From the NCBI GenBank assembly GCA_965250285.1, contig OZ252299.1, positions 2,944,001-3,008,000 of the forward strand: a stretch of 64,000 bases of DNA, read 5' to 3'. Below the pieces are notes generated by a model. The model saw nothing but the letters and a program-made list of their open reading frames with translations, did no database searches and had not been told where the DNA came from. The number at the start of each line of letters is the position of its first letter. Within the stretch, counting starts at the first letter, position 1. Of this stretch, positions 26,122-61,992 are shown piece by piece. The translations under genes were made by a program, and so were the position numbers. The stretch comes from Myxococcota bacterium (GTDB lineage: Bacteria; Myxococcota_A; UBA9160; UBA4427).

Positions 26122-26133
26122 GTCGGTCGCCAC

Positions 26134-32433: not shown

Positions 32434-32462
32434 TCGACAGATACGATACGGATCGTTACGTT
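32434..32462 (+). promoter_or_regulatory. Sigma70-like promoter with operator copy 1, upstream of the ipdA operon
   Basis: TCGACA-17nt-TACGTT; ACGATACG-GAT-CGTTACGT at 32443-32461. Confidence 0.6.
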
Positions 32463-32709
32463 ATTCGGCGGCGTCTCGGTCGACCGAGGTGCCTCTCGAG
32501 CCGACGAGATCCCCCCGGTCGTCCAGATTCTGGATCCGCCGATCTCGCGGGCCCGAGCGCAACGCCCCCATGCCCGCCGGCCACCCTGCCCCCTACGCTT
32601 CGCTTGGCGAGGGGAGCCGAGGCCGCCGCGCCCGAGCCTCCGCACCCGGCGGATCCGCCGCACCGGCGGACCGACCGTGCGTCGGCGGTCTGCCATAGAG
32701 GAAGCACGA

Positions 32710-33558
32710 GTGGACAAGCGCACGACCGAGCGCGACGCGGTCGCCGAGCTGCGTGATGGGATGACCATCGGCATCGGCGGCTGGGGCTCGCGGCGAAAGC
32801 CGATGAGCATCGTTCGCGAGATCCTCCGCACCGATCTCAAGGACCTGACCGTCGTGACCTACGGCGGCCCCGATGCCGGCCTGCTCTGCGCGTTCGGCCG
32901 CGTGAAGAAGCTGATCTACGGCTTCGTCTCGCTCGACTCGATCCCGCTCGAGCCCCACTTTCGAAAGGCCCGCCAAGCCGGCAGCTTCGAAGCGGCCGAG
33001 CTCGACGAGGGCATGCTGCAGTGGGGCCTGCTCGCGGCCGCCCACCGCCTGCCCTTCCTGCCCACGCGCGCCGGCCTCGGCAGCGACGTGCCCGCGATCA
33101 ATTCGGTGCTGAAGACGGTGACCTCACCCTACGACGACGGCGAAGAGCTGCTGGCGATGCCCGCCCTCGATCTCGACGTGGCGTTCATCCACATGAACCG
33201 CGCCGACGAGAAGGGCAACGGCCAGTTCCTCGGCCCCGACCTGTACTTCGACGACCTGTTCTGTCTCGCCGCCGAGAAGCGCTTCATGACGTGCGAGGAG
33301 ATCATCCCGACCGAAGACTTCGCGAAGCACGGCTCGATCCACACGATGAAGATCAATCGCATGATGATCGACGGCGTGATCGAGGCACCCGGCGGCGCGC
33401 ATTTCACCGAGTGCCCGCCCGACTACGCGCGCGACGAGAAGTTCCAGAAGGAGTACGCCGCGACGGCCAAGGACGAGGCCGCGTGGGACGCCTTCGTGAA
33501 GACGTACCTGCAGTGCGCCGACGAGTTCGAGTACCAGAAGGTGGTGAAGGCCCGATGA
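32710..33558 (+). CDS. ipdA: CoA-transferase-fold steroid ring-C hydrolase, alpha subunit
   Basis: GMTIGIGGWGSRRKPM, YGGPD.GLLC, YGFVSLDS, LPFLPTRAGLGSD, GPDLYFDDLF; GTG 32710. Confidence 0.88.
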   Translation: MDKRTTERDAVAELRDGMTIGIGGWGSRRKPMSIVREILRTDLKDLTVVTYGGPDAGLLCAFGRVKKLIYGFVSLDSIPLEPHFRKARQAGSFEAAELDEGMLQWGLLAAAHRLPFLPTRAGLGSDVPAINSVLKTVTSPYDDGEELLAMPALDLDVAFIHMNRADEKGNGQFLGPDLYFDDLFCLAAEKRFMTCEEIIPTEDFAKHGSIHTMKINRMMIDGVIEAPGGAHFTECPPDYARDEKFQKEYAATAKDEAAWDAFVKTYLQCADEFEYQKVVKAR

Positions 33559-34313
33559 GCGAAGCAACCCGAGCAGAAGTGTGTGCGGTGGCGGTCGCGG
33601 AGGCCTTTCGCGGCGACGGCGAGATTCTGGCGAGCTCGTTCGGCACGGTTCCGGCGGTCGGAGCGCGGCTCGCGCGCATGACGTTCGAGCCCGATCTGCT
33701 GATGACCGACGGCATCGCGACGGTGCTCGAGAGCGTCGACCCCGTGTCGGGGCCGAAGCCCGAGCCGGTCTACGGCGCGTGGATGAACTTTCGCACCGTG
33801 TTCGACGTGGTGTGGTCGGGCACCCGGCATGTCGTCATGATCGCGAGCCAGATCGATCGCTTCGGCAATCAGAATTTCGCCTGCATCGGCCCGCACGCGA
33901 AGCCGAAGGCCCAGCTCCTCGGCATGCGCGGTGCGCCGGGCAACACGATCAACCACAAGACCAGCTACTGGGTGCCGAACCACAGCGTCAAGACGTTCGT
34001 CGAAAAGGTCGACTGCGTGTCGGGCGTCGGCAACGATCGCGCGAAGGCGCTCGGCGACGCCGGCTCGCGCTTCCACGACCTGCGATACGTCGTGTCGAAC
34101 CTCGGCGTATTCGACTTCGACACGCCGGGGGGCGCGATGCGGCTCGTGTCGGTGCACCCCGGCGTGACCGTCGAAGAGGTCGTCGAGCAGACCGGCTTCG
34201 AGCTGGCGATGGCCGACGAGATCAAGGAGAGCCGTCTGCCGACGGAAGAAGAGCTGAAGATCATGCGCGACTTCCTCGACCCCGAGTCGACGATGGCGCG
34301 CGAAGTCAGCTAG
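33555..34313 (+). CDS. ipdB: Steroid ring-C hydrolase, beta subunit
   Basis: ATRAEVC..A.AEAFRGDGEILAS, QLLGMRGAPGNTINH.TSYWVPNH; ATGA overlap with ipdA. Confidence 0.88.
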   Translation: MSEATRAEVCAVAVAEAFRGDGEILASSFGTVPAVGARLARMTFEPDLLMTDGIATVLESVDPVSGPKPEPVYGAWMNFRTVFDVVWSGTRHVVMIASQIDRFGNQNFACIGPHAKPKAQLLGMRGAPGNTINHKTSYWVPNHSVKTFVEKVDCVSGVGNDRAKALGDAGSRFHDLRYVVSNLGVFDFDTPGGAMRLVSVHPGVTVEEVVEQTGFELAMADEIKESRLPTEEELKIMRDFLDPESTMAREVS

Positions 34314-34322
34314 AGGGCCGCC

Positions 34323-35381
34323 GTGCACGACGCGCTGCATACCCGCATCTGTGACCTGCTCGGGATCGAATACCCGATCATCCAGACCGGCATGGGCTGG
34401 GTGGCCGAGCCCGAGCTCGTCGCCGCGGTCAGCAACGCCGGCGCGATCGGCTTTCTCGCCGCCGCGACGATCCCACCCGACGAGGTCGAGGCGGCGATCG
34501 AGCGGGTCAAAGCCCTCACCGACCGCCCCTTCGGCGTGAACTTCCTGATGGACGCGCCCGGCGCCGACGTGATCACCGAGGCGATCCTGCGCCAGGGCGT
34601 GCGCGCAGCCGGCTACAACCGTGCGCCCTCGGCCGAGCTCATCGGCAAGTTGAAGGACGGCGGCGTCGTCTGCGTGCCGACCTGCGGCGCCGTCAAGCAC
34701 GCCGTGAAGGCCGAGAAGCTCGGCGCAGACATCATCATCGTGCAGGGCGGCGAAGGCGGGGGCCACACCGGCAGCGTCCCCACCTCGCTGCTCGTGCCTG
34801 GCGCCGTCGACGCGGTGAACGTGCCCATCGTCGGGGCGGGCGGGTTCTTCGACGGTCGCGGGCTCGTCTCGGCGCTCGCGTATGGCGCCGCCGGCGTCGC
34901 GATGGGCACCCGCTTCCTGCTGACGGCCGAGAGTCCGGTGCCCGATGTGACCACCGACCGCTACCTCGCGGCCGACGTCAGCGACGTGTTCGTCACGAGC
35001 GAGGTCGACGGCATGCCCCAGCGCGTCGTCGGCAACGAGCTCGTGCGCAAGCTCGAGACGCGCGGGCCCCTGGGCCGACTGGTCTTCGCGCTCGGCAACG
35101 CGATGGAGCTGCGCAAGACGACGGGGGCGACGATCCCCGAGCTGCTGCGCAGCGGCCTCGCGATGCGCAAGAACGAGCGGCTCACGCGATCGCAGCTGCT
35201 GATGGCGGCGAATGCCCCGATGCTCGCGAAGAAGGCGATGAACGACGGCGACCCGGTGAATGGCTACCTGCCGAGCGGCTCGGTGGCGGGGGCGATCGGC
35301 GACCGACCGCCGGCGGGCGACGTCGTCGAGCGCATCGTCGCCGAGGCCGAAGAGACCCTCGCACGCCTCGACGCCCGCTGA
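34323..35381 (+). CDS. ipdC: Nitronate-monooxygenase-family flavoprotein (IpdC-like)
   Basis: PIIQTGMGWVA, QGGEGGGHTG, AGGFFDGRGL, QLLMAANAPML; operon context. Confidence 0.82.
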   Translation: MHDALHTRICDLLGIEYPIIQTGMGWVAEPELVAAVSNAGAIGFLAAATIPPDEVEAAIERVKALTDRPFGVNFLMDAPGADVITEAILRQGVRAAGYNRAPSAELIGKLKDGGVVCVPTCGAVKHAVKAEKLGADIIIVQGGEGGGHTGSVPTSLLVPGAVDAVNVPIVGAGGFFDGRGLVSALAYGAAGVAMGTRFLLTAESPVPDVTTDRYLAADVSDVFVTSEVDGMPQRVVGNELVRKLETRGPLGRLVFALGNAMELRKTTGATIPELLRSGLAMRKNERLTRSQLLMAANAPMLAKKAMNDGDPVNGYLPSGSVAGAIGDRPPAGDVVERIVAEAEETLARLDAR

Positions 35382-35417
35382 CCCGAACAGGACGACTCGT
35401 CGTCCACGGAGTGCCCC

Positions 35418-36170
35418 ATGGCCATCGAAACGAACATCGAAGACGGCGTCGGCGAGGTGGTGATCAACAACCCCCCCGTGAACGCCCTCGACAGCCGGGG
35501 CTGGTTCGACTTCGCGGCCGCGGTGCGCGAGATGGGCGAGCGGGGCGACGTGCACTGCGTCGTGGTGCGCGCCGAGGGCAAGGGCTTTCAGGCCGGCGTC
35601 GACATCAAGGAGCTGGCCGCCGACGGTACGAAGATCGTCGACGTGAACCGCGGCTGCTACGACAGCTTCGCCGCCGTCTACGACTGTCCGGTGCCGGTGA
35701 TCTCGGCGGTGAACGGCTTCTGCCTCGGCGGCGGCATCGGCATCAGCGGCGCGAGCGACATCGTGATCGCGGCCGACGACGCGACGTTCTCGCTGCCCGA
35801 GATCGACCGTGGGGCCCTCGGCGCAGCGACCCACCTGATGCGCCTCTTCGGCATGCAGAAGACCCGCTACATGCTCTACACCGGCGAGGCGATCGACGCC
35901 GAAGAGGCGCTGCGCCTCGGCGGCATCGAGCGCATCGTGCCCCGCGCCGAGCTGCGCGACGAGGCGATGAAGATGGCGCGCGTCATCGCGAGCAAGAGCC
36001 CGAAGGCGCTTCGCCTGGCCAAGTGGTCGCTCAACGGCATCGAGCTGCTCGACATCAAGAAGAGCTACCGGTTCGAGCAGGGCTTCACGCTCGAGCTCTA
36101 CACGTCGCCCGACAGCCAGGAAGCGCGTGACGCCTTCGTCGAGAAGCGCGACGCGAGCTTCGACGGCTGA
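35418..36170 (+). CDS. echA20: Enoyl-CoA hydratase, steroid ring D (EchA20-like)
   Basis: PPVNAL...GW, GVDIKE, LPEIDRGALGAATHL, SYRFEQGFT.EL. Confidence 0.85.
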   Translation: MAIETNIEDGVGEVVINNPPVNALDSRGWFDFAAAVREMGERGDVHCVVVRAEGKGFQAGVDIKELAADGTKIVDVNRGCYDSFAAVYDCPVPVISAVNGFCLGGGIGISGASDIVIAADDATFSLPEIDRGALGAATHLMRLFGMQKTRYMLYTGEAIDAEEALRLGGIERIVPRAELRDEAMKMARVIASKSPKALRLAKWSLNGIELLDIKKSYRFEQGFTLELYTSPDSQEARDAFVEKRDASFDG

Positions 36171-36205
36171 ACGCCCCCTCCCCTTCCAACACGCGGAACC
36201 CGAAC

Positions 36206-37375
36206 ATGGATCTCTCTTACACGTCGAAGCACGACGCCTTTCGCAAAGAGGCGCGCGCCTGGCTCGAGGCGAACGTGCCCTCCGAGCCCCTCGAGACCTT
36301 CGACAAGAAGGACGGCTTCGAAGCCCACCGCGCGTGGGAGAAGAAGCTGAACGAAGGCGGCTGGGCCATGGTGCCGTGGCCGGTCGAGTACGGGGGCCGC
36401 GGCGCCGATCTGCTCGAGTGGCTGATCTTCGAGGAGGAGTACTACCGCGTCGGCGCGCCGGGGCGCGTGAACCAGAACGGCATCTTCCTGCTCGGCCCGA
36501 CGATCATGGAGTACGGCACGCCCGAGCAGAAGAAGCAGTTCCTGCCGACGATGGCGTCGTCGGAGACCGTCTGGGCCCAGGGCTGGAGCGAGCCCAACGC
36601 GGGCAGCGACATGGCCAACATCCAGACGACGGCCGTGCGGGATGGCGATCACTATGTCGTCAACGGGCAGAAGACCTGGGCGAGCCGCGGCGCGTATGCG
36701 CACTGGCTCTTCGGGCTCTTCCGGACCGACCCCGAGTCGAGCCGACACAAGGGCCTCACCTTCGTGCTGTGCCCGCTCGACGCGCCGGGCGTGACGGTGC
36801 GGCCGATCGAGAAGATCAACGGCAAGGCCGCGTTCGCCGAGGTCTTCTTCGACAACGCGAAGGTGCCGGTCGAGAACACGCTCGGCGGCGTGGGCGAGGG
36901 TTGGAACGTCGCGATGGCGACGGCCGGCTTCGAGCGCGGCCTCATGCTGCGCAGCCCGGCCCGGTTCCAGAGCACGGCTCAACGACTCGCCGACCTCTAC
37001 AAGCGCACGGTCAAGGAAGGGGGCGACGTCGACCCCGCTCTGCGCGACCGGGTCACTCGCTGCTGGGTGGCCGCTGAAGCGTACGCGCTCAACACCTACC
37101 AGACGGTGTCGCGGCTGCTCGCAGGCGGCAAGATCGGCGCCGAGGCCAGCCTCAACAAGATCTTCTGGAGCGAGCTCGACATCGAGATGCACGAGTGCGC
37201 GCTCGCGCTGCTGGGTGTACGCGGTGAGCTGGTGCCCGGCTCTCCCGGTGCCGGCGACGTCGGCCAGTGGCTCGACGGCTTCATCTTCGCGCTCTCGGGG
37301 CCCATCTACGCTGGCACCAACGAGATCCAGCGCAACATCATCGCCGAGCGCATCCTCGGCCTGCCGCGGAAATAG
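36206..37375 (+). CDS. fadE31: Acyl-CoA dehydrogenase (FadE31-like)
   Basis: EWLIFEEEYY..GAPGRVNQNGIFLL, WAQGWSEP, SGPIYAGTNEIQRN. Confidence 0.75.
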   Translation: MDLSYTSKHDAFRKEARAWLEANVPSEPLETFDKKDGFEAHRAWEKKLNEGGWAMVPWPVEYGGRGADLLEWLIFEEEYYRVGAPGRVNQNGIFLLGPTIMEYGTPEQKKQFLPTMASSETVWAQGWSEPNAGSDMANIQTTAVRDGDHYVVNGQKTWASRGAYAHWLFGLFRTDPESSRHKGLTFVLCPLDAPGVTVRPIEKINGKAAFAEVFFDNAKVPVENTLGGVGEGWNVAMATAGFERGLMLRSPARFQSTAQRLADLYKRTVKEGGDVDPALRDRVTRCWVAAEAYALNTYQTVSRLLAGGKIGAEASLNKIFWSELDIEMHECALALLGVRGELVPGSPGAGDVGQWLDGFIFALSGPIYAGTNEIQRNIIAERILGLPRK

Positions 37376-37389
37376 GGACGGACGTCGAC

Positions 37390-38448
37390 ATGCAGTTTCT
37401 GTTCAGCGAAGACCAGGAGATGCTCGCGCAGACGATCCGCGACTTTCTCGCGGGCGAATGCACCGCCGAGCACGTGCGCGCGCTGTGGGAGACCGAGACC
37501 GGACGATCGCCCGCGTTCTGGCAGCAGCTCACCGAGATCGGCCTGCCCGGGCTGCTCGTGCCCGAGGAGCACGGCGGCCTCGGCATGAGCGAGGTGGACG
37601 CGACGCTGGTGTTCGAGGAGACCGGCCGCGCGGCGCTCGCCGAGCCCTTGATCTCGACCGCCGCCGTCGCAGCGCCCCTGCTGCGTGAGATCGGCGGTGA
37701 CCTGGCGGCGACCTGGCTGCCGAAGATCGCGGCGGGCGAGGCCATCGTGGCCGTCGGACACGCGCAGAGCCCCTTCGTGGCGGACGCGCATGTCGCGCAG
37801 CTCCTGCTGCTCCCCGATGGCGACGATCTGCACGCCGTCGATCCGGCGAACGTCACGCTCACGGCGCAGACGAGCAACGACCAGAGCCAGCGCCTGTTCA
37901 GCGTCGAGTGGACGCCGTCGGGCGACACGCTCGTCGCCGAGAAGACGGTCGGCGCCGCGCTGCAGGCCGCCGCGCTCGACCGCGGCGCCCTCGCCAGCGC
38001 CTCCGAACAGCTGGGCGTGTGCTCGACGCTCATCGAGATGGGCGCCCTCTACGCGACCCAGCGCAAGCAGTTCGGCGTCGCGATCGGCACGTTCCAGGCG
38101 GTCAAGCACCGGTTGGCCAACGCCAAGGTCCAGCTCGAGTACGCACGCTCGGTCGTCTACCGCGCCGCACACTCGGTCGCCGTCGCCGCACCGACGAGGG
38201 CCGTCGACGTCTCGATGGCGAAGGTGACTTCGAGCGACGCCGCGACATTCGCGGCGAAGGAGTCGCTCCAGGTGCACGGCGCCATCGGTTACACCTACGA
38301 GCAGGACCTCCACGTGTGGATGAAACGCGCGTGGTCGCACGACCTCGCTTGGGGCACCAACGCATGGCACCGCGGTCGCCTCGCGGCCGCCCTGCTCGAC
38401 GACGACGGCCCGATCGCCGCCTTCGGCTTCCAGCCCCGGGCGGCCTGA
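37390..38448 (+). CDS. fadE32: Acyl-CoA dehydrogenase partner subunit (FadE32-like)
   Basis: RKQFG..IGTFQAVKH, LQVHGAIGYT.E.DLH.W; follows the fadE31-like gene. Confidence 0.7.
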   Translation: MQFLFSEDQEMLAQTIRDFLAGECTAEHVRALWETETGRSPAFWQQLTEIGLPGLLVPEEHGGLGMSEVDATLVFEETGRAALAEPLISTAAVAAPLLREIGGDLAATWLPKIAAGEAIVAVGHAQSPFVADAHVAQLLLLPDGDDLHAVDPANVTLTAQTSNDQSQRLFSVEWTPSGDTLVAEKTVGAALQAAALDRGALASASEQLGVCSTLIEMGALYATQRKQFGVAIGTFQAVKHRLANAKVQLEYARSVVYRAAHSVAVAAPTRAVDVSMAKVTSSDAATFAAKESLQVHGAIGYTYEQDLHVWMKRAWSHDLAWGTNAWHRGRLAAALLDDDGPIAAFGFQPRAA

Positions 38449-38523
38449 CGCCGACGCCCCTCCCTCATCGGGTATCTTTCCCGGCCCTTCGGGCGGGCAG
38501 CCCGAAGCCTCAAGGAGCCCCCC

Positions 38524-38955
38524 ATGTCGACCCCCCAAGCCCCGGCCATCGAGGGCTGGTTCTCGAACGACCCCGAGCCGCACCTGATCGGCACGCGCTG
38601 CAAGGTCTGCGGGACGTACTACTTCCCCGGCCAGCGCGACTTCTGCCGCAATCCCGACTGCTTCTCGACCGAGTTCGAAGAGGTGCGCCTCTCGCGCACG
38701 GGCAAGGTGTGGTCGTACACGAAGCACTTCTATCAGCCGCCCGACCCGTACATCGTCGATGGCGAGTTCGAGCCGTACACGATCGTCGGCGTCGAGCTCG
38801 AAGAAGAGAAGATGATGGTGCTCGGTCAGCTCGCCTCGGACGCCGACGAGAGCGTCCTCACGGCGGGCCTCGAGATGGAGCTCGTCATCGAGAAGCTCTA
38901 TCACCAGGACGGCACCGACTACACCGTGTGGAAGTGGAAGCCCCTCGCAGGCTGA
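38524..38955 (+). CDS. Zn-ribbon + OB-fold (DUF35) protein
   Basis: CKVC...YFP...CRNPDC, GKVWSYT; precedes a thiolase-fold gene. Confidence 0.88.
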   Translation: MSTPQAPAIEGWFSNDPEPHLIGTRCKVCGTYYFPGQRDFCRNPDCFSTEFEEVRLSRTGKVWSYTKHFYQPPDPYIVDGEFEPYTIVGVELEEEKMMVLGQLASDADESVLTAGLEMELVIEKLYHQDGTDYTVWKWKPLAG

Positions 38956-39022
38956 GCCACCGCCGGTCCACCACGCTCACGCATCTCGCGCGCGAAGCGC
39001 GCACCCTGAAGGAGAACCCATC

Positions 39023-40210
39023 ATGGGCCACGAAGTCGCAGTGCTCGGTGTCGGCATGCACCAATGGGGCAAGTGGGGCAAGAACTTCGTCGAGTACGGC
39101 GTGAAGGCCGCGCAGGACGCGCTCAAGGATGCCGGCCTCGACTGGCGCGACATCCAGCTGATCGCCGGCGCCGAGACGGTGCGCAACGGCTACCCCGGCT
39201 ACGTCGCGGGTGCGACGTTCGCCGAGGCGATGGGCTGGACGGGCGCTCGCATCTCGAGCTCGTACGCGGCCTGCGCATCGGGCGCCCAGGCGATCAACGA
39301 CGCTCGGGCCCAGATCCTTGCCGGCTTCTGTGACGTCGCGCTGGTGATCGGCGCCGACACGACGCCCAAGGGCTTCCTCGCCCCGAACGCGGGCGAGCGC
39401 TGGACCGACCCCGACTGGCTGCGCTTCCGCCTGATGGGCTGCACGAACCCCACCTACTTCGCACTCGCGGCACGCCGGCGCATGGACGTCTACGGCGCGA
39501 CCGAAGAGGATTTCGCGGCGGTGAAGGTCAAGAACGCCAAGCACGGCATGGCGAACCCCTACGCGCGGTATCACAAGGAGTTCACCATGCAGCAGGTGCT
39601 CGAGTCGCCCATGGTGGCCGACCCGCTGCGCCTGTTCGAGATCTGCGCGACGAGCGACGGCGCTGCGGCGTGCATCCTGACCAGCATGGAGTTCGCCAAG
39701 AGCCGCAACATCGATCCGATCAAGGTGAAGGCGGTGGCAACGACGACGCCGACGTTCCCCTGCACGACGCTCGAGATGCCGAACATCTCGACCGACTCGG
39801 CTGTCGCGGTCGAAGAGCCGCTGCGGCCCTTCAAGGCCAGCATCGCGCACGACGCATACGAAGAGGCCGGGCTCGGCCCCGAAGACATGTCGATCGCCGA
39901 GGTCTACGACCTCAGCTCGGCCCTCGAGCTCGACTGGTACGAGAACCTCGGCCTGTGTGGCGAGGGCGAGGCCGAGAAGCTGCTGCGCGACGGCGCCACG
40001 AAGATCGGCGGGCGCATCCCGGTCAACACGAGCGGGGGCCTCGCCTGCTTCGGCGAGGCCGTTCCGGCCCAGGCCGTCGCCCAGGTCTGCGAGTTGACCT
40101 GGCAGCTGCGCGGCGACGCGGGCGCCCGCCAGGTCGAGGGCGCGAAGGCCGGCATCACGGCGAACATCGGCCTGTTCGGCCACGGCTCGTCGGTCATCTG
40201 CACCAAGTAG
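39023..40210 (+). CDS. Thiolase-fold 'lipid-transfer protein' (SCP-x/Ltp-like)
   Basis: GMHQWGKWG, YAACASG, ICATSDG, EVYDL, VNTSGGL..FGEA. Confidence 0.85.
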   Translation: MGHEVAVLGVGMHQWGKWGKNFVEYGVKAAQDALKDAGLDWRDIQLIAGAETVRNGYPGYVAGATFAEAMGWTGARISSSYAACASGAQAINDARAQILAGFCDVALVIGADTTPKGFLAPNAGERWTDPDWLRFRLMGCTNPTYFALAARRRMDVYGATEEDFAAVKVKNAKHGMANPYARYHKEFTMQQVLESPMVADPLRLFEICATSDGAAACILTSMEFAKSRNIDPIKVKAVATTTPTFPCTTLEMPNISTDSAVAVEEPLRPFKASIAHDAYEEAGLGPEDMSIAEVYDLSSALELDWYENLGLCGEGEAEKLLRDGATKIGGRIPVNTSGGLACFGEAVPAQAVAQVCELTWQLRGDAGARQVEGAKAGITANIGLFGHGSSVICTK

Positions 40211-40249
40211 AAGCAACCGGCGCGCGGCGCGCGCCGACGGAGAATCGAA

Positions 40250-41401
40250 ATGCCCGAAGCCTATATCGTCGACGCGCTGCGCACGCCGGTCGGTCGCAAG
40301 AAGGGGAGCCTCTCGCAGGTCCACCCCGCCGACCTCGGCGCCCACAGCCTGAAGGCGCTGATGGACCGCACCGACATGGACGCCGGCGCCGTCGAGGACG
40401 TCGTCTTCGGCTGCGTCGACACGATCGGCCCCCAGGCCGGCGACATCGCCCGCACCTGCTGGCTGGCGGCCGGCCTCCCCGAGCACGTGCCCGGCACCAC
40501 CGTCGATCGCCAGTGCGGCAGCGCCCAGCAGGCGATCCACTTCGCGGCCCAGGCCGTCATGAGCGGCACGATGGACGTCGTCGTCGCGGGCGGCGTGCAG
40601 GCGATGAACCTGATCCCGATCTCGGCCGCGATGTACGCCGGCCAGGAGTACGGCTTCGAGAACCCGTTCACCGGCAGCCCCGGCTGGGTCGAGCGCTACG
40701 GCGACGGTGAGGTCTCGCAGTTCAACTCGGCCGACATGATCGCGAAGAAGTGGGACATCTCGCGTGAAGACATGGAGCGCTTCGGCCTGCAGAGCAACGA
40801 ACGGGCGCTCAAGGCCATCGCCGACGGTCGTTTCGAGCGTGAGATCGTGCCGGTGGGCGACTTCGCCGTCGACGAGCCGCCGCGCGAATCGAGCCTCGCG
40901 AAGATGGCGACGCTCAAGACCCTCCAGGAGGGCGGCCGCGTCACCGCAGCCGTGTCGAGCCAGATCGCCGATGCGTCGGCGGCGCTGCTGATCGTGAGCG
41001 AGCAGGGTCTGAAGGATCACGGCCTCACGCCGCGCGCGCGCATCCACCACATGTCGGTGCGCGCCGACGATCCCGTGTGGATGCTCACCGCGCCCATCCC
41101 GGCCACGGAGCACGCCTTCAAGAAGACCGGCATGACGAAGAACGACATCGATCTCGTCGAGATCAACGAGGCGTTCGCCTCGGTCGTGATCGCCTGGCAG
41201 AAAGAGTCGGGCTTCGAGGACGAGAAGGTCAACGTGAACGGCGGCGCGATCGCCCTCGGTCACCCGCTCGGCGCGACCGGCGCACGGCTCATGACCACCC
41301 TGCTCCACGAGCTCGAGCGCACCGGCGGCCGCTACGGCCTGCAGACCATGTGCGAGGGCGGCGGTCAGGCGAACGTCACCATCATCGAGCGACTCGGCTA
41401 G
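40250..41401 (+). CDS. fadA6: Acetyl-CoA acyltransferase (FadA6-like thiolase)
   Basis: DRQCGS, IPISAAM, NEAFA, GHPLGATG, MCEGGG; HIP-operon context. Confidence 0.8.
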   Translation: MPEAYIVDALRTPVGRKKGSLSQVHPADLGAHSLKALMDRTDMDAGAVEDVVFGCVDTIGPQAGDIARTCWLAAGLPEHVPGTTVDRQCGSAQQAIHFAAQAVMSGTMDVVVAGGVQAMNLIPISAAMYAGQEYGFENPFTGSPGWVERYGDGEVSQFNSADMIAKKWDISREDMERFGLQSNERALKAIADGRFEREIVPVGDFAVDEPPRESSLAKMATLKTLQEGGRVTAAVSSQIADASAALLIVSEQGLKDHGLTPRARIHHMSVRADDPVWMLTAPIPATEHAFKKTGMTKNDIDLVEINEAFASVVIAWQKESGFEDEKVNVNGGAIALGHPLGATGARLMTTLLHELERTGGRYGLQTMCEGGGQANVTIIERLG

Positions 41402-41503
41402 CCGCAGCGACACGCGTCGTCGGCGGCGGCCCACGGCCAGCCGAAACACACCGGATTCGACGCGATCGGGCGAAGAGCCCGATGGCGTCGAAGGAGAGAG
41501 AAC

Positions 41504-42403
41504 ATGATCTGTGAGGGACGCGTCGTCATCGTGACCGGCGCAGGCGGCGGCATCGGCCGCGCCCACGCCATCGCCTTTGCGGCCGAAGGCGCGAAGGTCG
41601 TCGTAAACGACCTCGGCACCAGCAACCACGGCGAGGGCGAGAGCGCCGGCCCCGCCGAGCAGGTCGCCGAAGAGATTCGCGCGATGGGGGGCGAGGCCGT
41701 GGCCAACGGCGCCGACGTGGCCGACTTCGCCGAAACCAAGCAGCTCGTCGAGCAGGCGATCGACACGTTTGGTGGCCTCGACGTCGTGGTCAACAATGCG
41801 GGCTTCCTGCGCGACCGAATGTTCATGTCGACCAGCGAAGACGAGTGGGACGCCGTGGTCCGGGTTCACATGAAGGGCCACTTCTGCACGTCGCGGCACG
41901 CCGCCGAGTACTGGCGCGGCCGCAGCAAGGCCGGCGAGACCGTCGACGCCCGCATCATCAACACCAGCTCGGGCGCCGGTCTGCAGGGCAGCGTCGGCCA
42001 GGCCACCTACTCGGCGGCCAAGGGCGGCATCGCGACCCTCACCCTGGTGCAGGCCGCCGAGCTCGGCCGCTACGGCGTGACGGCCAACGCGATCGCCCCG
42101 GCGGCGCGCACGCGCATGACCGAGGCGATCTTCACCGACATGGCGGCGCCGGAGGACGGCGCATTCGACGAGAACGCGCCCGAGAACATCTCGCCGCTCG
42201 TCGTCTGGCTCGGCTCGGCCGAGAGCCGCGACGTCACGGGCCGCGTCTTCGAGGTGAAGGGCGGCCTCATTGGCACGAGCGTCGGCTGGCATGACGGCCC
42301 GATCGTCGACAAGGGCAGCCGCTGGGCGCCCGACGAGGTCGGTGCGGCCGTGCACGAGGTCATCGAGAAGAGCCCCGCGCCCCAGAAGGTCTTCGGCACC
42401 TGA
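41504..42403 (+). CDS. SDR family oxidoreductase
   Basis: TGAGGGIG, NNAG.LRDRM, YSAAK. Confidence 0.9.
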   Translation: MICEGRVVIVTGAGGGIGRAHAIAFAAEGAKVVVNDLGTSNHGEGESAGPAEQVAEEIRAMGGEAVANGADVADFAETKQLVEQAIDTFGGLDVVVNNAGFLRDRMFMSTSEDEWDAVVRVHMKGHFCTSRHAAEYWRGRSKAGETVDARIINTSSGAGLQGSVGQATYSAAKGGIATLTLVQAAELGRYGVTANAIAPAARTRMTEAIFTDMAAPEDGAFDENAPENISPLVVWLGSAESRDVTGRVFEVKGGLIGTSVGWHDGPIVDKGSRWAPDEVGAAVHEVIEKSPAPQKVFGT

Positions 42404-42461
42404 GCCCCGGCGGCGAAGCCGAACTGCCCCTCCCCGCAAGCGCCCCACCGAGGCAAGACCG

Positions 42462-43601
42462 ATGGATCTGAAGTTCAACGAAGAGCAGCTCGAGCTGCGC
42501 GCCATGGCCGAGAGCTTCCTCGAAGAGCACTCGGGCAGCGAGCAGGTTCGCGCGGCCGCCGAGAGCGAGCTTGGCTACGACGAGAAGGTCTGGGAGCAGG
42601 TGGCGACCGAGCTCGGCTGGGCGGCGGTCCACATCCCCGAAGCCTACGGCGGCCTCGGCCTCGAGTACGCCGATCTCGTGGCGCTCGTCGAAGTGATGGG
42701 AGGCGCCCTCTTCTGCAGCCCCTTCTTCGGCACCGTCGCGCTCGGCGCCAACGCCCTGCTCGTCGGCGGCGACGAGGCACAGAAGCAGCAGTGGCTGCCC
42801 GGCATCGCCGAGGGAACGACCCGAGCCACGCTCGCGGTCGCCGAAGAGAATGGACTCGCGGGGGCAGAAGGCGTCGAGGCCAGCTTCACGCGGGAGGGCG
42901 ACGATTTCGTACTGCGCGGCGCCAAGCGCTACGTGGTCGACGGTCACGTCGCTGACCTGATCATCGTCGCGGCGCGCGCCGAGGGCACGACGGGGCGCGA
43001 GGGCATCGGCCTCTTTCTCGTGCCGGCCGACTCGCCCGGCGTCGAGCGCCGCGCGCTGCCCACGCTCGACCAGACCCGACGCCTCGCCGAGGTCGTGCTC
43101 GACGGCGTGCGTGTCGGCGCCAACGCCTCGCTCGGCACGGCCGGCCAGGCCGCGCCGATGCTCGAGAAGACGCTGCACCTCGCGGCCATCGCCCTGGCCG
43201 CCGAGCAGGTCGGAGGCGCCGAGCGGTGCCTGCAGATGGCGGTGGCGTACGCCCAGGAGCGCGAGCAGTTCGGACGTGTGATCGGGTCGTTCCAGGCGAT
43301 CAAGCACAAGTGCGCCGACATGATGGTGCTCGTCGAGGCAGCGCGGTCGGCGGTGTACTACGCCGCGTGCGCAGCCACGGACGACACCGACGAGCTGCCG
43401 GCGGTGGCCTCGCTCGCGAAGGCATACTGCTCCGACGCCTACTTCCAGTGCGCCGCCGACAACATCCAGATTCACGGCGGCGTCGGCTTCACCTGGGAGT
43501 ACGACTGCCACCTGCACTTCAAGCGCGCCAAGTCGAGCGAGAGCCTGCTCGGCGATCCGCCCCACCATCGCGAGCAGGTCGCGCAGGCGATCGGGCTCTA
43601 G
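42462..43601 (+). CDS. Acyl-CoA dehydrogenase (FadE33-like partner subunit)
   Basis: REQFGR.IGSFQAIKHKCADM, IQIHGGVGFTWE..CHL.FKRA. Confidence 0.85.
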   Translation: MDLKFNEEQLELRAMAESFLEEHSGSEQVRAAAESELGYDEKVWEQVATELGWAAVHIPEAYGGLGLEYADLVALVEVMGGALFCSPFFGTVALGANALLVGGDEAQKQQWLPGIAEGTTRATLAVAEENGLAGAEGVEASFTREGDDFVLRGAKRYVVDGHVADLIIVAARAEGTTGREGIGLFLVPADSPGVERRALPTLDQTRRLAEVVLDGVRVGANASLGTAGQAAPMLEKTLHLAAIALAAEQVGGAERCLQMAVAYAQEREQFGRVIGSFQAIKHKCADMMVLVEAARSAVYYAACAATDDTDELPAVASLAKAYCSDAYFQCAADNIQIHGGVGFTWEYDCHLHFKRAKSSESLLGDPPHHREQVAQAIGL

Positions 43602-43603
43602 CG

Positions 43604-44380
43604 GTGGACGCCCTCGACTTCTCGGGCAAGGCCGTCATCGTCACCGGCGGCACGAAGGGCGTCGGGCGCGGCATCACGACGCGCTTCCTCGAGCAGGGCG
43701 CCGACGTCGTCGTCTGCGGGCGCAGCGAGCCCGATGCGCCGATCCAGGCGGGCGGACGCGAGGCCCGGTTCATCGCCGCAGACGTGCGCGACGTCGAGCA
43801 GGTGCAAACGGTCGTCGACTTCGCGAAGGAACGATGCGGACGGCTCGACGTGCTCGTGAACAACGCGGGCGGGGCACCCGAGGCCGATGCCGCGACCGCC
43901 TCGCCTCGATTCACCGAAGCGATCGTCCGCCTCAACATGCTCGCGCCGATCAACTTCGCGCAGGCGGCGAACGCGGTGATGCAGAGCCAGGACGAGGGCG
44001 GCTCCATCGTGAACATCGCGAGCGTATCGGGCGTGCGCCCCTCACCCGGCACTGCCGCCTATGGCGCGGCCAAGGCAGGCCTTCTGTCGTTCACGACGAC
44101 GGTCGCTGTCGAGTGGGCACCCAAGGTGCGCGTCAACGCCGTGACGGCGGGCATGATCCGAACGGAGCAGGCTCACCTGCACTACGGTGACGAAGAGGGC
44201 ATCGCAGCGGTCGGCGCGACCGTGCCGCTCGGCCGCATGGGCGAGCCCGACGACGTCGGCGACACCTGCCTCTATCTCGCGTCCCCCCTCGCCCGCTACG
44301 TGAGCGGCGCGAACGTGCTGCTGCACGGCGGGGGCGAAGCGCCGGCGTTCCTCGCGGCGGCGAAGAACAAGAGCGCCTGA
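43604..44380 (+). CDS. SDR family oxidoreductase
   Basis: TGGTKGVG, NNAGG, RPSPGTAAYGAAK, EWAPKVRVN; GTG 43604. Confidence 0.9.
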   Translation: MDALDFSGKAVIVTGGTKGVGRGITTRFLEQGADVVVCGRSEPDAPIQAGGREARFIAADVRDVEQVQTVVDFAKERCGRLDVLVNNAGGAPEADAATASPRFTEAIVRLNMLAPINFAQAANAVMQSQDEGGSIVNIASVSGVRPSPGTAAYGAAKAGLLSFTTTVAVEWAPKVRVNAVTAGMIRTEQAHLHYGDEEGIAAVGATVPLGRMGEPDDVGDTCLYLASPLARYVSGANVLLHGGGEAPAFLAAAKNKSA

Positions 44381-44403
44381 ACTGCGACCACAAGGAGCCC
44401 CCG

Positions 44404-44865
44404 ATGGCCACCGTCTTCGAATCACCCAAAGACCTGATCGGCAAGGAAGGCACCGAGCTCGGCGTGAGCGACTGGCTCGAGATCGACCAGGAGCGCATCA
44501 ACACGTTCGCCGACGCGACGGGCGACCATCAGTGGATCCACGTCGATCCCGAGCGCGCGAAGCAGGGCCCGTTCGGCGCGCCCATCGCGCACGGCTACCT
44601 CACGATGTCGCTCGTGAACAAGTTCCTGCCCGAGACGGTCGAGGTGCGCGGCATCTCGATGGGCGTCAACTACGGCTCGGACAAGCTTCGCTTTCCCGCG
44701 CCGGTCCCGGTCGGCTCGCGCATCCGCGGTCGGTCGGAGCTGATCAAGGTCGAAGAGGTGAAGGGCGGCGCCATCCAGGCGACGATCCGCGTGACCGTCG
44801 AGATCGACGGCGGCGAACGCCCCGCCTGCGTGGTCGACACGATCAGCCGCTACGTCCCCGCCTGA
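44404..44865 (+). CDS. MaoC family (R)-hydratase
   Basis: FADATGDHQWIHVD, IAHG, VNYG...RF. Confidence 0.9.
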   Translation: MATVFESPKDLIGKEGTELGVSDWLEIDQERINTFADATGDHQWIHVDPERAKQGPFGAPIAHGYLTMSLVNKFLPETVEVRGISMGVNYGSDKLRFPAPVPVGSRIRGRSELIKVEEVKGGAIQATIRVTVEIDGGERPACVVDTISRYVPA

Positions 44866-50223: not shown

Positions 50224-50232
50224 GGCCGCACC

Positions 50233-55940: not shown

Positions 55941-57121
55941 GCCGGGCGCGGCTCCTTGGGCAGGCCGAGGGCCCGCTCGCTGATGATGTTGCGCTGAATC
56001 TGGTTCGAGCCGGCGTAGATCGTGTCGCTGCGCGTGAACAGGTACATGCGCTGGAGCCGCGACAGATCGTAGGGCGCGCCGTTCGCGATCTCGGCCTCGG
56101 GGCCGATCACGTCCATCGCGAGCTTGCCGAGCTCGCGATGCCAGGTGGCCCAGAAGATCTTGGTGATCATCCCCTCACGACCGCCGTCGACGCCCTCGTG
56201 ACTCAGCGTGCGCAGCGCGTTGTAGCGCTGGATCCGCAGCCCGATCCAGGCGTCGGCCAGGCGCTGCCGAATGAGCGGATCCTTGGCTCGGCCGTTGTCC
56301 TTCGCGATCTGGATGATCTCGTCGAGCTCGTTCTGGAAGCTCATCTGCTGGCCGAGCGTCGAGGCGCCCCGCTCGAACGCCAGGGTGCCCATCGCGACCT
56401 TCCAGCCGCCGTTCACGTCGCCCACGATGTTGGCCTCGTCGGCCTTCGCGTCGTTGAAGAACACCTCGCTGAACTCGGCGTCGCCCGTCATCTGCACGAT
56501 CGGCCGCACGTCGACACCCGGCTGGTCCATCTCGCAGAGGATGTACGAGATGCCGCGGTGCTTCGGCTGCGCGTTCGCGTCGGTGCGGCAGACCACGAAG
56601 CACCAGTCGCTCCAGGCCGCGCCGCTCGTCCATACCTTCTGGCCGTTCAGCACCCACTCGCCGTCGACGAGCTCGGCGCGGGTCTGCACGTTGGCGAGAT
56701 CACTGCCGGCGCTGGGCTCGCTGTAGCCCTGGCACCAGATTTCCTCGCCGCTCAGGATGCCGGGCAGAAATCGCTGCTTCTGCTCTTCGGTGCCGAAGTG
56801 GATCACCGTCGGCGCGAGCAGGCCCTCGCCGATGTGCCCCATGCGGCCGGGGCCCTGGGCGCGCGCGTATTCTTCATAGAAGATCACCTGCTGGGTCAGC
56901 GAGAGATCGCGGCCGCCCACGTCCTTCGGCAGCGCGATGCCGATCCAGCCGGCGTCGCCCAGCTTGCGCTCCCAGGCCTTGCGCTCGTCGACGAGCGAGT
57001 GCTCGTCACCCGGGCCACCGCGGCCCTTCACGGCCTTGAACTCGCCGTTCAGGTGCTCGGCGAGCCAGCCGGCGATCTCGCGGCGGAAATCCTCGTCTTC
57101 GTCGCTGAAGCGGGCATGCAT
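55937..57121 (-). CDS. fadE30: Acyl-CoA dehydrogenase (FadE30/IpdE1-like)
   Basis: G.GGPG.EH, QVIFYEEYARA, WCQGYSEP, ERGASTLGQQ, LFTRSDTIYAGSNQIQRN. Confidence 0.8.
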   Translation of the reverse strand: MHARFSDEDEDFRREIAGWLAEHLNGEFKAVKGRGGPGDEHSLVDERKAWERKLGDAGWIGIALPKDVGGRDLSLTQQVIFYEEYARAQGPGRMGHIGEGLLAPTVIHFGTEEQKQRFLPGILSGEEIWCQGYSEPSAGSDLANVQTRAELVDGEWVLNGQKVWTSGAAWSDWCFVVCRTDANAQPKHRGISYILCEMDQPGVDVRPIVQMTGDAEFSEVFFNDAKADEANIVGDVNGGWKVAMGTLAFERGASTLGQQMSFQNELDEIIQIAKDNGRAKDPLIRQRLADAWIGLRIQRYNALRTLSHEGVDGGREGMITKIFWATWHRELGKLAMDVIGPEAEIANGAPYDLSRLQRMYLFTRSDTIYAGSNQIQRNIISERALGLPKEPRPA

Positions 57122-57187: not shown

Positions 57188-57206
57188 ACGATACGCTGCG
57201 ACTCGA
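57188..57206. promoter_or_regulatory. Operator copy 2, in the divergent fadE30/fadD3 intergenic region
   Basis: ACGATACG-CTG-CGACTCGA. Confidence 0.6.
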
Positions 57207-57259
57207 AACAACCCCCGGCGGGGATCCCGCCTTATGCGACCGGCGCACCGGAGAAGCCG

Positions 57260-58816: not shown

Positions 58817-58867
58817 GCGGGCCAGCGCTGGCCCCTACCCGTTCGCGCCCCACCGAAGAGGATCGAC

Positions 58868-60448: not shown

Positions 60449-61140
60449 AGCCCACCCGTCACGTCGCCCTGCGAGAGCACGGTGGTGTTGTCGAGCGACA
60501 CACCGCAGGTCAGCCCCCCCGATGAGGCGCAGAACCAGGACGCGTCACTGTTGATCACCGTGCCGAGGTAGCGAATCTGCGCCTTGATCCCGACGTGCTT
60601 CACGATCGGGATCTTCAGCCCCCCGATCGCCGAGAACGAAAAGAACCAGTCGGTGCTGGCGCTGGTGTTGATCGGCGTGATGTGTGTGGCGCCGATGCCG
60701 AGGCCGATGAACGGCACGAGGTGCTTCTGCATCGGCAGGTCGAGCTCTCCGCCGAGCTGCAGGATGCCGATGTCGACGTCGAAGCTGGTCGAAGGCGGTA
60801 CGCCCGTCGCCGAGTCGAAGTGCGCCGTCGTGGCCTGACGCGAGTAGCTGACGAAGGCAAAGCCGTCTTCCTGCACGCGCAGCCCGGCCTGCACCGTCCA
60901 CGCCTGGGCCGGGTCGATGTCGATGTTGCCCTCTTCGAGGTTCAGCGAGCCGCCGAACTGGATGCCGTAGAGGCCGGTGATCTGCACCTTGCCCGGATCG
61001 ATGATCTCGGGCTTCGGTCGAGAGCCCTGGGCGAGCGCGGACTCGCCCACGAGGAGCGCGCACGCGGCGAGCAGCCCGGCGGCGGCGCGCAGCTGTCGGC
61101 GGCGGCATCGGCCGAGTCGATGCGGGTGCTTGCGGATCAT
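60433..61140 (-). CDS. Outer-membrane beta-barrel protein
   Basis: Signal peptide ending ALA|Q, LVPFIG.G.G, Cys pair in a loop, terminal GLYVSF. Confidence 0.75.
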   Translation of the reverse strand: MIRKHPHRLGRCRRRQLRAAAGLLAACALLVGESALAQGSRPKPEIIDPGKVQITGLYGIQFGGSLNLEEGNIDIDPAQAWTVQAGLRVQEDGFAFVSYSRQATTAHFDSATGVPPSTSFDVDIGILQLGGELDLPMQKHLVPFIGLGIGATHITPINTSASTDWFFSFSAIGGLKIPIVKHVGIKAQIRYLGTVINSDASWFCASSGGLTCGVSLDNTTVLSQGDVTGGLYVSF

Positions 61141-61281
61141 CCATCCCCCCTCGGCGCCGAGCGCCGTCTGGACGAGCATCGCGCGAATCGACGCGATTCC
61201 AATGGCCTATCGGCATTTCTGCCGATTCATGAAGGGGGATTCGGAGGTAAGGGGGTTCGGAACGCCGGCGGTCGACTCGGG

Positions 61282-61881
61282 CTATCGGCTCGCGAGGATG
61301 CCCGAGAGCGCCAGATCGACCATCGGGCCCACGCTCTTCGCGTTCAGCCGGCCCCCCTTGAAAAAGAGGGTGACTGCGATGGGCCCGACCACCAGATCGG
61401 TGGCCAGGTCGATATCGAGATCGGCGGCAATCTCGCCGCGCTCACGGGCCCGCTCGAACGCTTCGCTGAGCGGCCGACGACGGCCGAGGCTGACCGGCGT
61501 GAAGAGTTCGTCGAGCTCGGGGTTGTGGCTGCGCTCGCCGGCGAGGCTCGGCAGCACGGCTGCGAGCGCCGTCGTGTTGAACGTCTCGATGTAGCTCGTC
61601 AGCATGCGCTTGAGGTCGTCGGCCAGACGCCCGGTATCGCACGCCTCGAAGGCCGGCAGCTGACCGAACGCCTCGACGACGAGGGGCAGCTTCGAGGGCC
61701 AGCGGCGATAGATCGTGGCCTTGCCGACGCCCGCGCGTGTGGCGACCCCCTCGACCGTGAGCGCCGAGAAGCCGACCTCGGCGAGCAGCTCGAGCGTGGC
61801 ATCGAGGATCGCCTTGTGGGCCTCCTCGCTGCGGGGCCGGCCGGTGCTCGCCGCCGTCTCGGTCTTGCCGGGTGCGCTCAT
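61282..61881 (-). CDS. TetR/AcrR family regulator
   Basis: GRPRS...AILDATLELL...G...LTVEGVA.RAGVGKATIYRRWPSK. Confidence 0.93.
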   Translation of the reverse strand: MSAPGKTETAASTGRPRSEEAHKAILDATLELLAEVGFSALTVEGVATRAGVGKATIYRRWPSKLPLVVEAFGQLPAFEACDTGRLADDLKRMLTSYIETFNTTALAAVLPSLAGERSHNPELDELFTPVSLGRRRPLSEAFERARERGEIAADLDIDLATDLVVGPIAVTLFFKGGRLNAKSVGPMVDLALSGILASR

Positions 61882-61973
61882 GATTCCCTTGGGGTGCGGT
61901 CCACTCGTCCCGATGGGGCGGCGTGGAGTCGGTGACGGGCGGGTCCCTGGCGCGCCCGTCCCGCTCGGACATT

Positions 61974-61992
61974 ACGATACTATACGTCTCGA
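61974..61992. promoter_or_regulatory. Operator copy 3, between tetR and the divergent ligase gene
   Basis: ACGATACT-ATA-CGTCTCGA. Confidence 0.65.

Follow-up and report, generated by a model that had tools for sequence, protein, structure and literature searches.

A putative EdcR-type TetR repressor with conserved operators at steroid C/D-ring and edc-like genes in UBA9160-type Myxococcota

A candidate repressor and its operators

We studied a stretch of 64,000 nucleotides (G000:C1:2944001-3008000; in the following, the window) from the genome of a Myxococcota bacterium of class UBA9160. It contains genes for the degradation of the steroid C/D rings, i.e., of methylhexahydroindanedione propionate (HIP), a tetR gene (61282-61881) and three intergenic palindromes. 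These palindromes are probably the operators of the encoded TetR_C_11 protein, a predicted repressor of tetR itself, of the HIP genes and of a group of edc-like genes. That is, sequence comparison predicts an EdcR-type repressor in the role of KstR2 that additionally controls B-ring genes, with putative operators conserved at the same genes in some two dozen uncultured relatives.

Since neither the protein family nor the operator class is new, we consider the regulatory finding solid but incremental. Few regulators of steroid catabolism are known; the finding provides a testable candidate for an EdcR-type repressor replacing KstR2, whose operators are defined and kept across an order. Steroid degradation is also linked to an uncultured Myxococcota lineage; a survey of 9,10-seco marker genes had assigned it to Actinobacteria and Proteobacteria alone (PMC5790920). 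Our literature search, with few subscription journals within reach, found no description of this regulator or regulon, nor did the literature searched turn up a regulator of C/D-ring genes outside Actinobacteria.

Genomes, matrices and scope

The host genome (G000; 6.25 Mb, 68.6% GC, single contig, 95% complete) was compared with 40 sampled relatives (41 genomes in total; genomes and loci carry handles of the form G### and L###). The class has been renamed Vahlivitia in a 2026 preprint. The genomes are kin and not independent, i.e., all counts across them are descriptive. Coding and intergenic status in G000 refers to de novo gene calling, and individual fadE names were assigned from gene order and not from a family cut-off.

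Matrix 1 was built from tetR upstream regions alone and applied to the ipdA and fadD3 loci with a threshold of 13 bits. Matrix 2 is based on 49 sites, none of them from G000 or G001, and has the consensus ATTACGATACG-N3-CGTATCGTAAT. In pattern counts across genomes, overlapping shifted matches were counted separately and totals were added by hand. The titled loci L043-L062 overlap partly with the G-handle loci; their counts were kept separate and not summed.

Putative operators in the window and the host genome

The three 19-mers start at 32443, 57188 and 61974, all are intergenic and each is preceded by T, as had been described in an earlier reading of the window from its letters (the sequence-only reading). 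When up to 3 mismatches are allowed, ACGATACGNNNCGTATCGT is matched 4 times in the window (32438, 32443, 57188, 61974), while 100 shuffles give 0.22 matches on average and none reached 4. The match at 32438 reads the first site in a second register that begins 5 bp earlier.

With matrix 2, the two registers of operator 1 score 31.7 and 23.0 bits, operator 2 reaches 24.5 bits and operator 3 is the best-scoring site of G000 (33.6 bits). The window sites rank 1st, 2nd and 5th in the genome. The genome-wide matrix scan, which the sequence-only reading had proposed, yields 9 scan windows (7 distinct sites) with at least 20 bits, all of them intergenic, compared to 0 in each of 10 shuffles; steroid operons are among the targets. 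A register at -5 is seen at 3/8 G000 sites examined (23, 24 and 14 bits), which is no more than suggestive since the matrix itself is periodic. The P450, thiolase and ltp genes of G000 that were checked with the matrix show no site.

One might argue that such sites are chance AT-rich promoter sequence within a GC-rich genome, given that intergenic promoter DNA is richer in AT and that the sites overlap promoter elements. The shuffle controls effectively refute this; furthermore, a site found before frdA in G000 is absent in 29/30 loci, and 94 of the 95 TetR upstream regions of G000 score below 14 bits. We thus give this explanation practically no weight.

Conservation across relatives

A match to the window TetR (E <= 7e-52) is present in 32/40 relatives; the G003 protein, with no more than 52% identity, is possibly a paralogue. 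Within 350 bp upstream of tetR, the motif is found with up to 3 mismatches in 23/30 loci vs. 1/600 shuffles. A further 3 tetR loci have a site in front of the preceding gene, some 1.43 kb upstream. Using matrix 1, sites of at least 13 bits are observed for 26/30 ipdA loci (null maximum 8.3) and 19/30 fadD3 loci (null maximum 2.6). The claim of the sequence-only reading that the sites form a regulon of HIP genes is thus borne out in silico. The edc-type acyl-CoA dehydrogenase, which was outside the training set, has a matrix 2 site upstream in 26/29 loci.

The motif counts track the window TetR across genomes. The 32 relatives having the TetR contain 130 motif matches, with 7 matches of the reversed control over all 41 genomes. 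G027, G032, G035 and G036 show 0, 1, 0 and 0 matches; in these genomes, no TetR, no FadD3 and no edc-type dehydrogenase was detected. Three incomplete genomes with steroid genes and an unassembled TetR have 3, 2 and 3 matches, and G029, with a partial TetR, has 0. Finally, G033 (99% complete) encodes HIP genes, has no TetR orthologue and shows no site at ipdA or fadD3. Its contig C85 (L394-L395) holds the full HIP set, again with neither TetR orthologue nor sites, and no KstR2 boxes were found on this contig; the G033 HIP genes have either a third regulatory solution or none.

In many relatives, tetR is linked to fadD3 or to the ligase gene next to it. At least five further relatives (L021, L023, L025, L027, L028) have a homologue of the ligase gene at 62014-63606 upstream of tetR. 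The gene divergent from tetR varies otherwise: it is a KstD-family flavoprotein gene at G031:C1:3544188-3545828 and G005:C35:66968-68608 (about 306 bits, below the cut-off) and a P450 gene in L015, L022, L033 and L034. The homologue of this P450 in G000 (315141-316358) is also the protein that matches EdcA best. From their position, these flavoprotein or P450 genes would share the tetR operator.

The window TetR as candidate binder

Pfam identifies TetR_N and TetR_C_11 in the protein encoded at 61282-61881. Its predicted model has a predicted local distance difference test (pLDDT) score of 89.8, and the closest Foldseek hit is 2fq4, followed by the Ms6564-DNA complex 4jl3 (ranks 2-4). Among the 95 TetR_N genes of G000, only the window tetR has a site upstream; the next-best upstream scores are 13.0 bits (inside a coding region) and 7.6 bits. 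Since it is the sole TetR gene of G000 with such a site, the window TetR is the likely binder, which is also the candidate that the sequence-only reading had named. Autoregulation via operator 3 is likely. The recognition segment (residues 51-61) is identical in 8/8 aligned orthologues, and 9/11 of its residues are found in the EdcR orthologue introduced below. Given the autoregulatory site, the co-occurrence across genomes and the shared recognition helix, we are highly confident that the window TetR binds the sites.

Another binder would have to be the second TetR_C_11 protein of G000 (4467162-4467761), the KstR-like protein discussed below or a factor outside the TetR family. Such a binder is conceivable since the operator is common to the subfamily and the second TetR_C_11 protein scores above the cut-off. 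The latter, however, shares only 5/11 recognition residues, its upstream region scores 3.0 bits, i.e., holds no site, and its gene is 1.4 Mb distant, while a different box is associated with the KstR-like protein in 25/29 loci. Together with the motif counts that follow the window TetR, this makes a different binder very improbable.

To place the protein, a tree was computed for 62 of 221 sequences (long-branch rows dropped, no outgroup root). It separates 28 rows from 34 other TetR_C_11 rows with support 100/99, and the same split is obtained in a 120-row tree with a value of 99 in the Shimodaira-Hasegawa-like approximate likelihood ratio test (SH-aLRT). The group of 28 consists of 11 UBA9160-type sequences, 9 of the EdcR group and 8 neighbours, where the UBA9160-type sequences and the EdcR group each form their own clade. 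In this unrooted tree, the window TetR thus appears as sister to the EdcR group and not within it. One of the 8 neighbours, encoded at L063 (titled Alphaproteobacteria metagenome-assembled genome), is flanked by two operators of 19.5 and 27.5 bits and lies in an edc-like cluster (EdcA 51%, EdcB 53%, crotonase 55%).

We also inspected 59 TetR_C_11 genes of more distant origin, including Actinomycetota and Chloroflexota. A site is found within 400 bp in 20/59 and within 2.2 kb in 32/59 cases, the latter vs. 2/295 shuffles. Of these loci, only that of EdcR carries a gene of the steroid island.

Comparison with known regulators

Caenibius tardaugens EdcR, a TetR_C_11 protein, has estrone/estradiol as inducers, and its action as a repressor was shown genetically (PMC8700777). 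As its orthologue we took the TetR at 10001-10552 of L076 from Croceicoccus estronivorus MH-B5, for which contig and gene order fit; the contig is the one named for the MH-B5 edc cluster (PMC7793797). The window TetR and this protein share TetR_N and TetR_C_11 domains, 40% identity and the KATIYRRW helix, and the former is the best match of the latter in G000. EdcR targets that are also part of the G000 set are acyl-CoA dehydrogenases, two MaoC hydratases, a short-chain dehydrogenase/reductase (SDR), a 3-hydroxy-3-methylglutaryl-CoA (HMG-CoA)-synthase-like protein and two crotonases. With matrix 2, the operators in the edc cluster of C. estronivorus reach 26.9, 24.8 and 12.0 bits, and the exact EdcR consensus TnnCnnTACnAnTnGTAnnGnnA has 0 matches in G000. 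That is, the operators of EdcR and of the window appear to be of the same class with different central bases.

The two systems differ in several respects. The predicted window regulon covers HIP genes, while the HIP genes of C. tardaugens are reported in a separate SD cluster (PMC7793797). G000 was found without an edcA or edcB orthologue, and its EdcC-like gene is apparently under a KstR-type box. The autoregulatory site of the window tetR is strong, that of EdcR partly conserved (PMC8700777). Finally, the window TetR belongs to another phylum, and its ligand-binding domain is identical to that of the EdcR orthologue at only 38/125 positions (30%). The sequence-only reading had assumed an independently recruited regulator. 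This needs to be qualified: as an apparent sister of EdcR, the protein is related to a steroid-catabolic repressor that was already described.

Ms6564 of Mycobacterium smegmatis was footprinted on the 8-3-8 inverted repeat ACGAGACG-N3-CGTCTCGT (PMC3273814), which is one base per half-site off the window consensus. The class, ACGA(G/T)ACG with a 3-bp spacer, is the one seen in the window. Ms6564 (4jkz, 4jl3) resembles the window TetR in sequence (E 1.7e-14) and fold (template modelling score 0.72) at 28% identity. Because the Ms6564 footprint is of this class, operators of the EdcR cluster reach 25-27 bits with matrix 2 and sites are found near 20/59 distant TetR_C_11 genes, the operator is not new, contrary to what the sequence-only reading had supposed. 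Ms6564 binds as a dimer of dimers (PMC4150764), which would fit the window registers 5 bp apart. According to PMC3273814, it binds near -35 and acts broadly as a positive regulator on genes of DNA repair and the cell cycle, with no steroid role described.

KstR2 (Rv3557c; Mycobacterium/Rhodococcus) occupies an equivalent position in the circuit. It targets ipdAB, ipdC, echA20, fadA6, ipdF, fadE30-33 and fadD3, has three local operators, is autoregulated and is paired with an upper tier of KstR type. The window TetR differs in C-terminal family and operator, and its predicted regulon reaches B-ring genes. Presumably, the ligand domain of KstR2 is of TetR_C_24 type. That the window TetR itself is KstR2 was ruled out by its TetR_C_11 domain and by the lack of a KstR2 chain among its 46 PDB matches. 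A search for a KstR2 orthologue in G000 gave as best TetR_C_24 protein one that matches KstR2 only with E 1.6e-10 at rank 4. The KstR2 box AnCAAGnnCTTGnT (from PMC3068626) has 1 match in G000, which is in a coding region, and none at the HIP genes; no match was found on the ipdA/fadD3 contigs of G033, G005 and G020 or anywhere in G016 and G031. The sequence-only reading was therefore right in separating the regulator from KstR2.

Likewise, the window TetR was rejected as KstR, the TetR-family steroid repressor: it matches KstR over the helix-turn-helix only (residues 13-74) and uses another box. The TetR_C_20 domain and the box TnnAACnnGTTnnA, which we take to be the KstR-type box, belong to a different G000 protein (2075430-2076047).

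Predicted regulon beyond the C/D-ring genes

Sites at G000:3043793, 3048971 and 3076490, i.e., 35-70 kb beyond the window, head operons of edc homologues, and searches of G000 with edc proteins gave the operon products as best matches. Respective identities are 51, 52 and 37% for acyl-CoA dehydrogenases, 38 and 36% for MaoC hydratases, 56% for the SDR, 45% for the HMG-CoA-synthase-like protein and 47 and 40% for two crotonases; overall, the edc beta-oxidation genes of G000 show 36-69% identity. Edc enzymes are proposed to carry A-ring-cleaved estrogens to HIP (PMC7793797, PMC8913865). Because conserved sites head these operons, the regulon is wider than the C/D ring: the label of a C/D-ring regulon, given by the sequence-only reading, is correct for the genes it covers and too narrow in view of the operons of edc A/B-ring beta-oxidation homologues. 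Joint control of edc-like and HIP genes suggests a broader role for the 'estrogen' B-ring module.

The steroid island G000:C1:3024000-3092000 (L001-L005), syntenic in G031, holds homologues of most edc genes, an EdcC-like oxidoreductase (53%), an Ltp-like protein (49%), a ChsH2-like protein (38%) and two P450s. It also encodes F420-type LLM oxidoreductases, CoA-transferases and a carboxyltransferase, and no dioxygenase of EdcB/HsaC type was found in it. In G031, which is from another family, the equivalent island has six sites, one of them before a run of SDR, HMG-CoA synthase, thiolase and crotonase genes like edc OpA.

Sites before a chsH2-chsH1-ltp2 copy, a CoA-transferase gene and frdA are mostly confined to G000 and G001. 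They were rejected as core regulon since they are rarely conserved. The frdA site (G000:C1:3302062; fumarate-reductase flavoprotein) scores 22.5 bits, with 24.5 bits in G001, and is present in 0/29 other loci, i.e., it is seen in these two genomes only; succinyl-CoA is a proposed end product of HIP degradation (PMC5380842). A further intergenic site of 16.0 bits (G000:C1:755193) precedes the gene of a 374-aa protein without Pfam match at E 1e-6, whose start resembles, by eye, the island proteins at 3062247 and 3063457.

A KstR-like tier and the ring-A gap

G000 encodes a KstR-like TetR_C_20 protein (G000:C1:2075430-2076047; L010:8433-9047, minus strand) that matches KstR with E 9e-22. Its gene is directly before those of a FadA5-family thiolase and an SDR and has two KstR-type boxes upstream. 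An orthologue is present in 36/41 genomes, with a KstR-type box upstream in 25/29 loci vs. 2/580 shuffles. Other KstR-type boxes in G000 are at 2069249, 2196141 and 3099253, with weak ones at 2060689 and 3075369, and such a box precedes three acyl-CoA dehydrogenase pairs. For the EdcC-like gene, a KstR-type box is found in 10/17 orthologous loci vs. 0/11 more distant homologues, where the G000 copy is weak (13.4 bits). These data make a KstR-type circuit outside Actinobacteria a candidate. As KstR senses an early sterol-CoA ester (PMC8700777), sterols are the likelier substrate.

The more novel lead is the ring-A-opening step, which was not found. In G000, the best KstD score is 167 bits for a cut-off of 789 (5 of 9 listed FAD_binding_2 candidates scanned) and the best HsaA score is 263 bits for a cut-off of 450. 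HsaC has no match at E 1e-20, and EdcB has no tblastn match at E 1e-4, with a best TIGR03213 score of 57 bits vs. 238 for EdcB itself. These negatives span KstD, HsaA, HsaC and EdcB, while the anaerobic enzymes 1-TDH and SRAH were outside the reference-sequence searches. The best EdcA match is 34% identical. None of the five KshA_C matches in G000 could be assigned to an NCBIfam family at E 1e-40; one of them was compared with the PDB and matches KshA there with E 1e-44, and a divergent KshA is possible. Two large subunits of molybdenum hydroxylases were rejected as ring-A candidates, having weak family matches only and being outside the steroid island. The island itself is a candidate home of the step.

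Among the relatives, HsaC is above its cut-off in 0/41 genomes, a generic match is seen in 9/41, and 32/41 are without HsaC/EdcB-like match at E 1e-20. KstD is above its cut-off in 0/5, where G023 reaches 769 of 789 bits. EdcB-like dioxygenases (41-45%) are encoded beside VOC and P450 or Ltp genes at G001:C244 (L405), G011:C71 (L414) and G023:C12 (L410), and it is possible that these cassettes are true estrogen-entry cassettes in some lineages. At G001:C244, a second EdcR-like TetR with a weak site of 13.9 bits is found beside the EdcB-like gene.

Possible explanations of the gap are that ring-opened steroids are taken up from other microbes, that a divergent KshA acts or that an anaerobic route (PMC11780191) is used. 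We tentatively propose, and would rather doubt than assert as a whole, that UBA9160-type Myxococcota are a widespread and so far unrecognized group of sterol degraders with a hybrid route, in which the following points hold jointly. The KstR-like tier would remove the side chain and supply the EdcC-like 2-oxoacid oxidoreductase; ring A would be opened by a reaction without KstD/HsaA/HsaC or EdcA/EdcB; and the Edc-like module would strip ring B to HIP, with the EdcR-type repressor also running the C/D ring. If true, the two operator sets outline the pathway and indicate where the ring-A enzyme may be sought.

Mechanism, effector and competing readings

Before ipdA, the hexamers TCGACA (32434-32439) and TACGTT (32457-32462) are spaced by 17 bp, and operator 1 sits in the spacer; the combination scores 8/12 on the promoter scan for a threshold of 9. 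In 22/27 ipdA upstream regions with a site, we find a -35 element with at least 4/6 matches, a 17-bp spacer and TAnnnT around the site, where the -35 element is TTTACA-like. The site likewise fills the 17-bp spacer in the promoter of the edc-type acyl-CoA dehydrogenase. Given this placement and the fact that EdcR is a repressor, we are highly confident that the window TetR, if it binds, represses. It might instead activate like Ms6564, which is a positive regulator binding near -35 (PMC3273814). The sites, however, occupy a spacer of normal length (17 bp) between -35 and -10, and EdcR, to which the protein is more closely related, acts as a repressor, which leaves activation very improbable.

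A repressor in the promoter spacer would block RNA polymerase at ipdAB, fadE30/fadD3, the edc-like operons and tetR, with two staggered dimers possibly bound where two registers overlap. We slightly favour an arrangement of two dimers on opposite faces of the DNA where the registers are 5 bp apart. The repressor would come off the DNA in response to a steroid intermediate that enters the B-ring module, while side-chain removal and the EdcC-like oxidoreductase would be left to the separate KstR-like regulator. Taken together, a two-tier circuit of KstR and EdcR type would replace that of KstR and KstR2. The effector may be a steroid whose C/D rings are intact and which lacks the side chain or has ring A opened, i.e., the entry substrate of the regulon, an assignment to which we give somewhat less than an even chance. 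Should a seco-steroid or HIP turn out to be the effector, the window TetR would be a new biosensor part.

Several results weigh against a repressor acting through these operators as described. The sigma-70 consensus scan gives 0 promoter-like sites in all three operator regions; the positions of the promoters therefore rest on cross-genome comparison, and of the promoter that the sequence-only reading had placed before ipdA, the letters and the conserved arrangement stand without a consensus match. No site was found within the 3.6 kb fetched for 2/30 tetR loci (L027, L040), and 6/30 fadD3 loci are without site, including G029 and G025, which have the TetR. The peripheral sites are rarely kept (chsH2 copy 2/30, CoA-transferase 4/30, frdA 1/30), and the EdcC-like gene has a site directly upstream in 0/28 loci. 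The taxon sample of the tree was gathered by searches with the window TetR and EdcR. Furthermore, the operator appears to be subfamily-wide such that the motif alone does not single out the window TetR. For EdcR itself, the operator was proposed in silico, an electrophoretic mobility shift assay not being mentioned in the main text of PMC8700777. Since only 38/125 ligand-domain residues are identical, its effector is not transferable.

Binding and repression are shared by a reading in line with the sequence-only one, in which the protein is a KstR2 substitute that senses HIP-CoA or HIP and is essentially a C/D-ring regulator. The linkage of tetR to fadD3 or its neighbouring ligase in many relatives fits this picture, as does the KstR-like upper tier. 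In addition, the operators are placed like KstR2 boxes in actinobacteria, which are between fadE30 and fadD3 and before kstR2 (PMC3068626), and the KstR2 effector is HIP-CoA (PMC8700777, PMC5380842). On the other hand, the edc-type dehydrogenase site is as conserved as that of ipdA, and the respective enzymes would act upstream of HIP. Since the sister EdcR also answers free estrone/estradiol and no CoA ester, as described in PMC8700777, we consider this reading unlikely.

Less likely still is that the protein is a true EdcR sensing estrone/estradiol in estrogen degraders whose regulon was extended to HIP genes. Its apparent position as sister of EdcR, the common operator class, homologues of most edc genes including edcC and the EdcB-like dioxygenases in G001, G011 and G023 speak for it. 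In G000, however, no EdcB was found, EdcA is matched at best with 34% and the exact EdcR consensus does not occur; furthermore, most genomes (32/41) are without HsaC/EdcB-like match, and the KstR-type box at the EdcC-like gene points to side-chain-bearing sterols. We thus keep the repressor of both HIP and edc-like genes as the preferred reading.

Gene content of the window

The features of the window are collected in Table 1. The gene names used by the sequence-only reading hold: IpdA and IpdB match chains A and B of 6co6 (E 5.6e-103 and 1.9e-74), and the crotonase, thiolases and SDRs of the HIP operon are above their NCBIfam cut-offs, as is FadD3. We take 6co6 and 6con to be IpdAB structures. 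The order ipdB-ipdC-echA20-fadE31-fadE32-fadA6-SDR-fadE33, with fadE30 and ipdF nearby, follows that of the locus tags in the HIP cluster of S. denitrificans (PMC5380842, Table 1), and the HIP operon order is identical in G031 and G033.

Table 1. Features of the window (positions within the 64,000 nucleotides).
Feature	Position	Strand	Remark
operator 1	32438..32461		two overlapping 19-bp registers, 32438-32456 and 32443-32461; before ipdAB operon
HIP (steroid C/D-ring) operon	32710..44865	+	ipdA to MaoC
ipdA	32710-33558	+	
ipdB	33588-34313	+	
ipdC-like	34323-35381	+	
echA20-like	35418-36170	+	
two acyl-CoA dehydrogenases	36206-38448	+	
DUF35/OB protein	38524-38955	+	
thiolase-like	39023-40210	+	
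fadA6-like thiolase	40250-41401	+	
SDR	41504-42403	+	
acyl-CoA dehydrogenase	42462-43601	+	
SDR	43604-44380	+	
MaoC	44404-44865	+	end of HIP operon
ipdF-like SDR	55158-55940	-	above PRK07831 cut-off
fadE30-like acyl-CoA dehydrogenase	55937-57121	-	
operator 2	57188..57206		in 138-bp gap between divergent fadE30 and fadD3
fadD3 (HIP-CoA ligase family)	57260-58816	+	NCBIfam FadD3 691 bits, cut-off 657
second acyl-CoA ligase	58868-60448	+	next after fadD3
tetR	61282..61881	-	putative TetR_N + TetR_C_11 repressor, 199 aa, EdcR-related; recognition segment GVGKATIYRRW
operator 3	61974..61992		93 bp upstream of tetR, just before divergent ligase
acyl-CoA ligase	62014..63606	+	divergent from tetR

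Beside these features, a second TetR gene of the window (10978-11697, plus strand) has a weak TetR_C_11 match, and its upstream region scores -9.1 bits, i.e., shows no operator. Large genes on the plus strand fill 19547-32388; the last of them encodes a CHAT-domain protein (30487-32388) right before the ipdA promoter and showed no tie to the regulon in the tests made. Between the two HIP blocks, the plus strand encodes an Erm-like rRNA adenine methyltransferase (53977-54825; 191 bits for a cut-off of 212) with a low codon-model score and unrelated neighbours.

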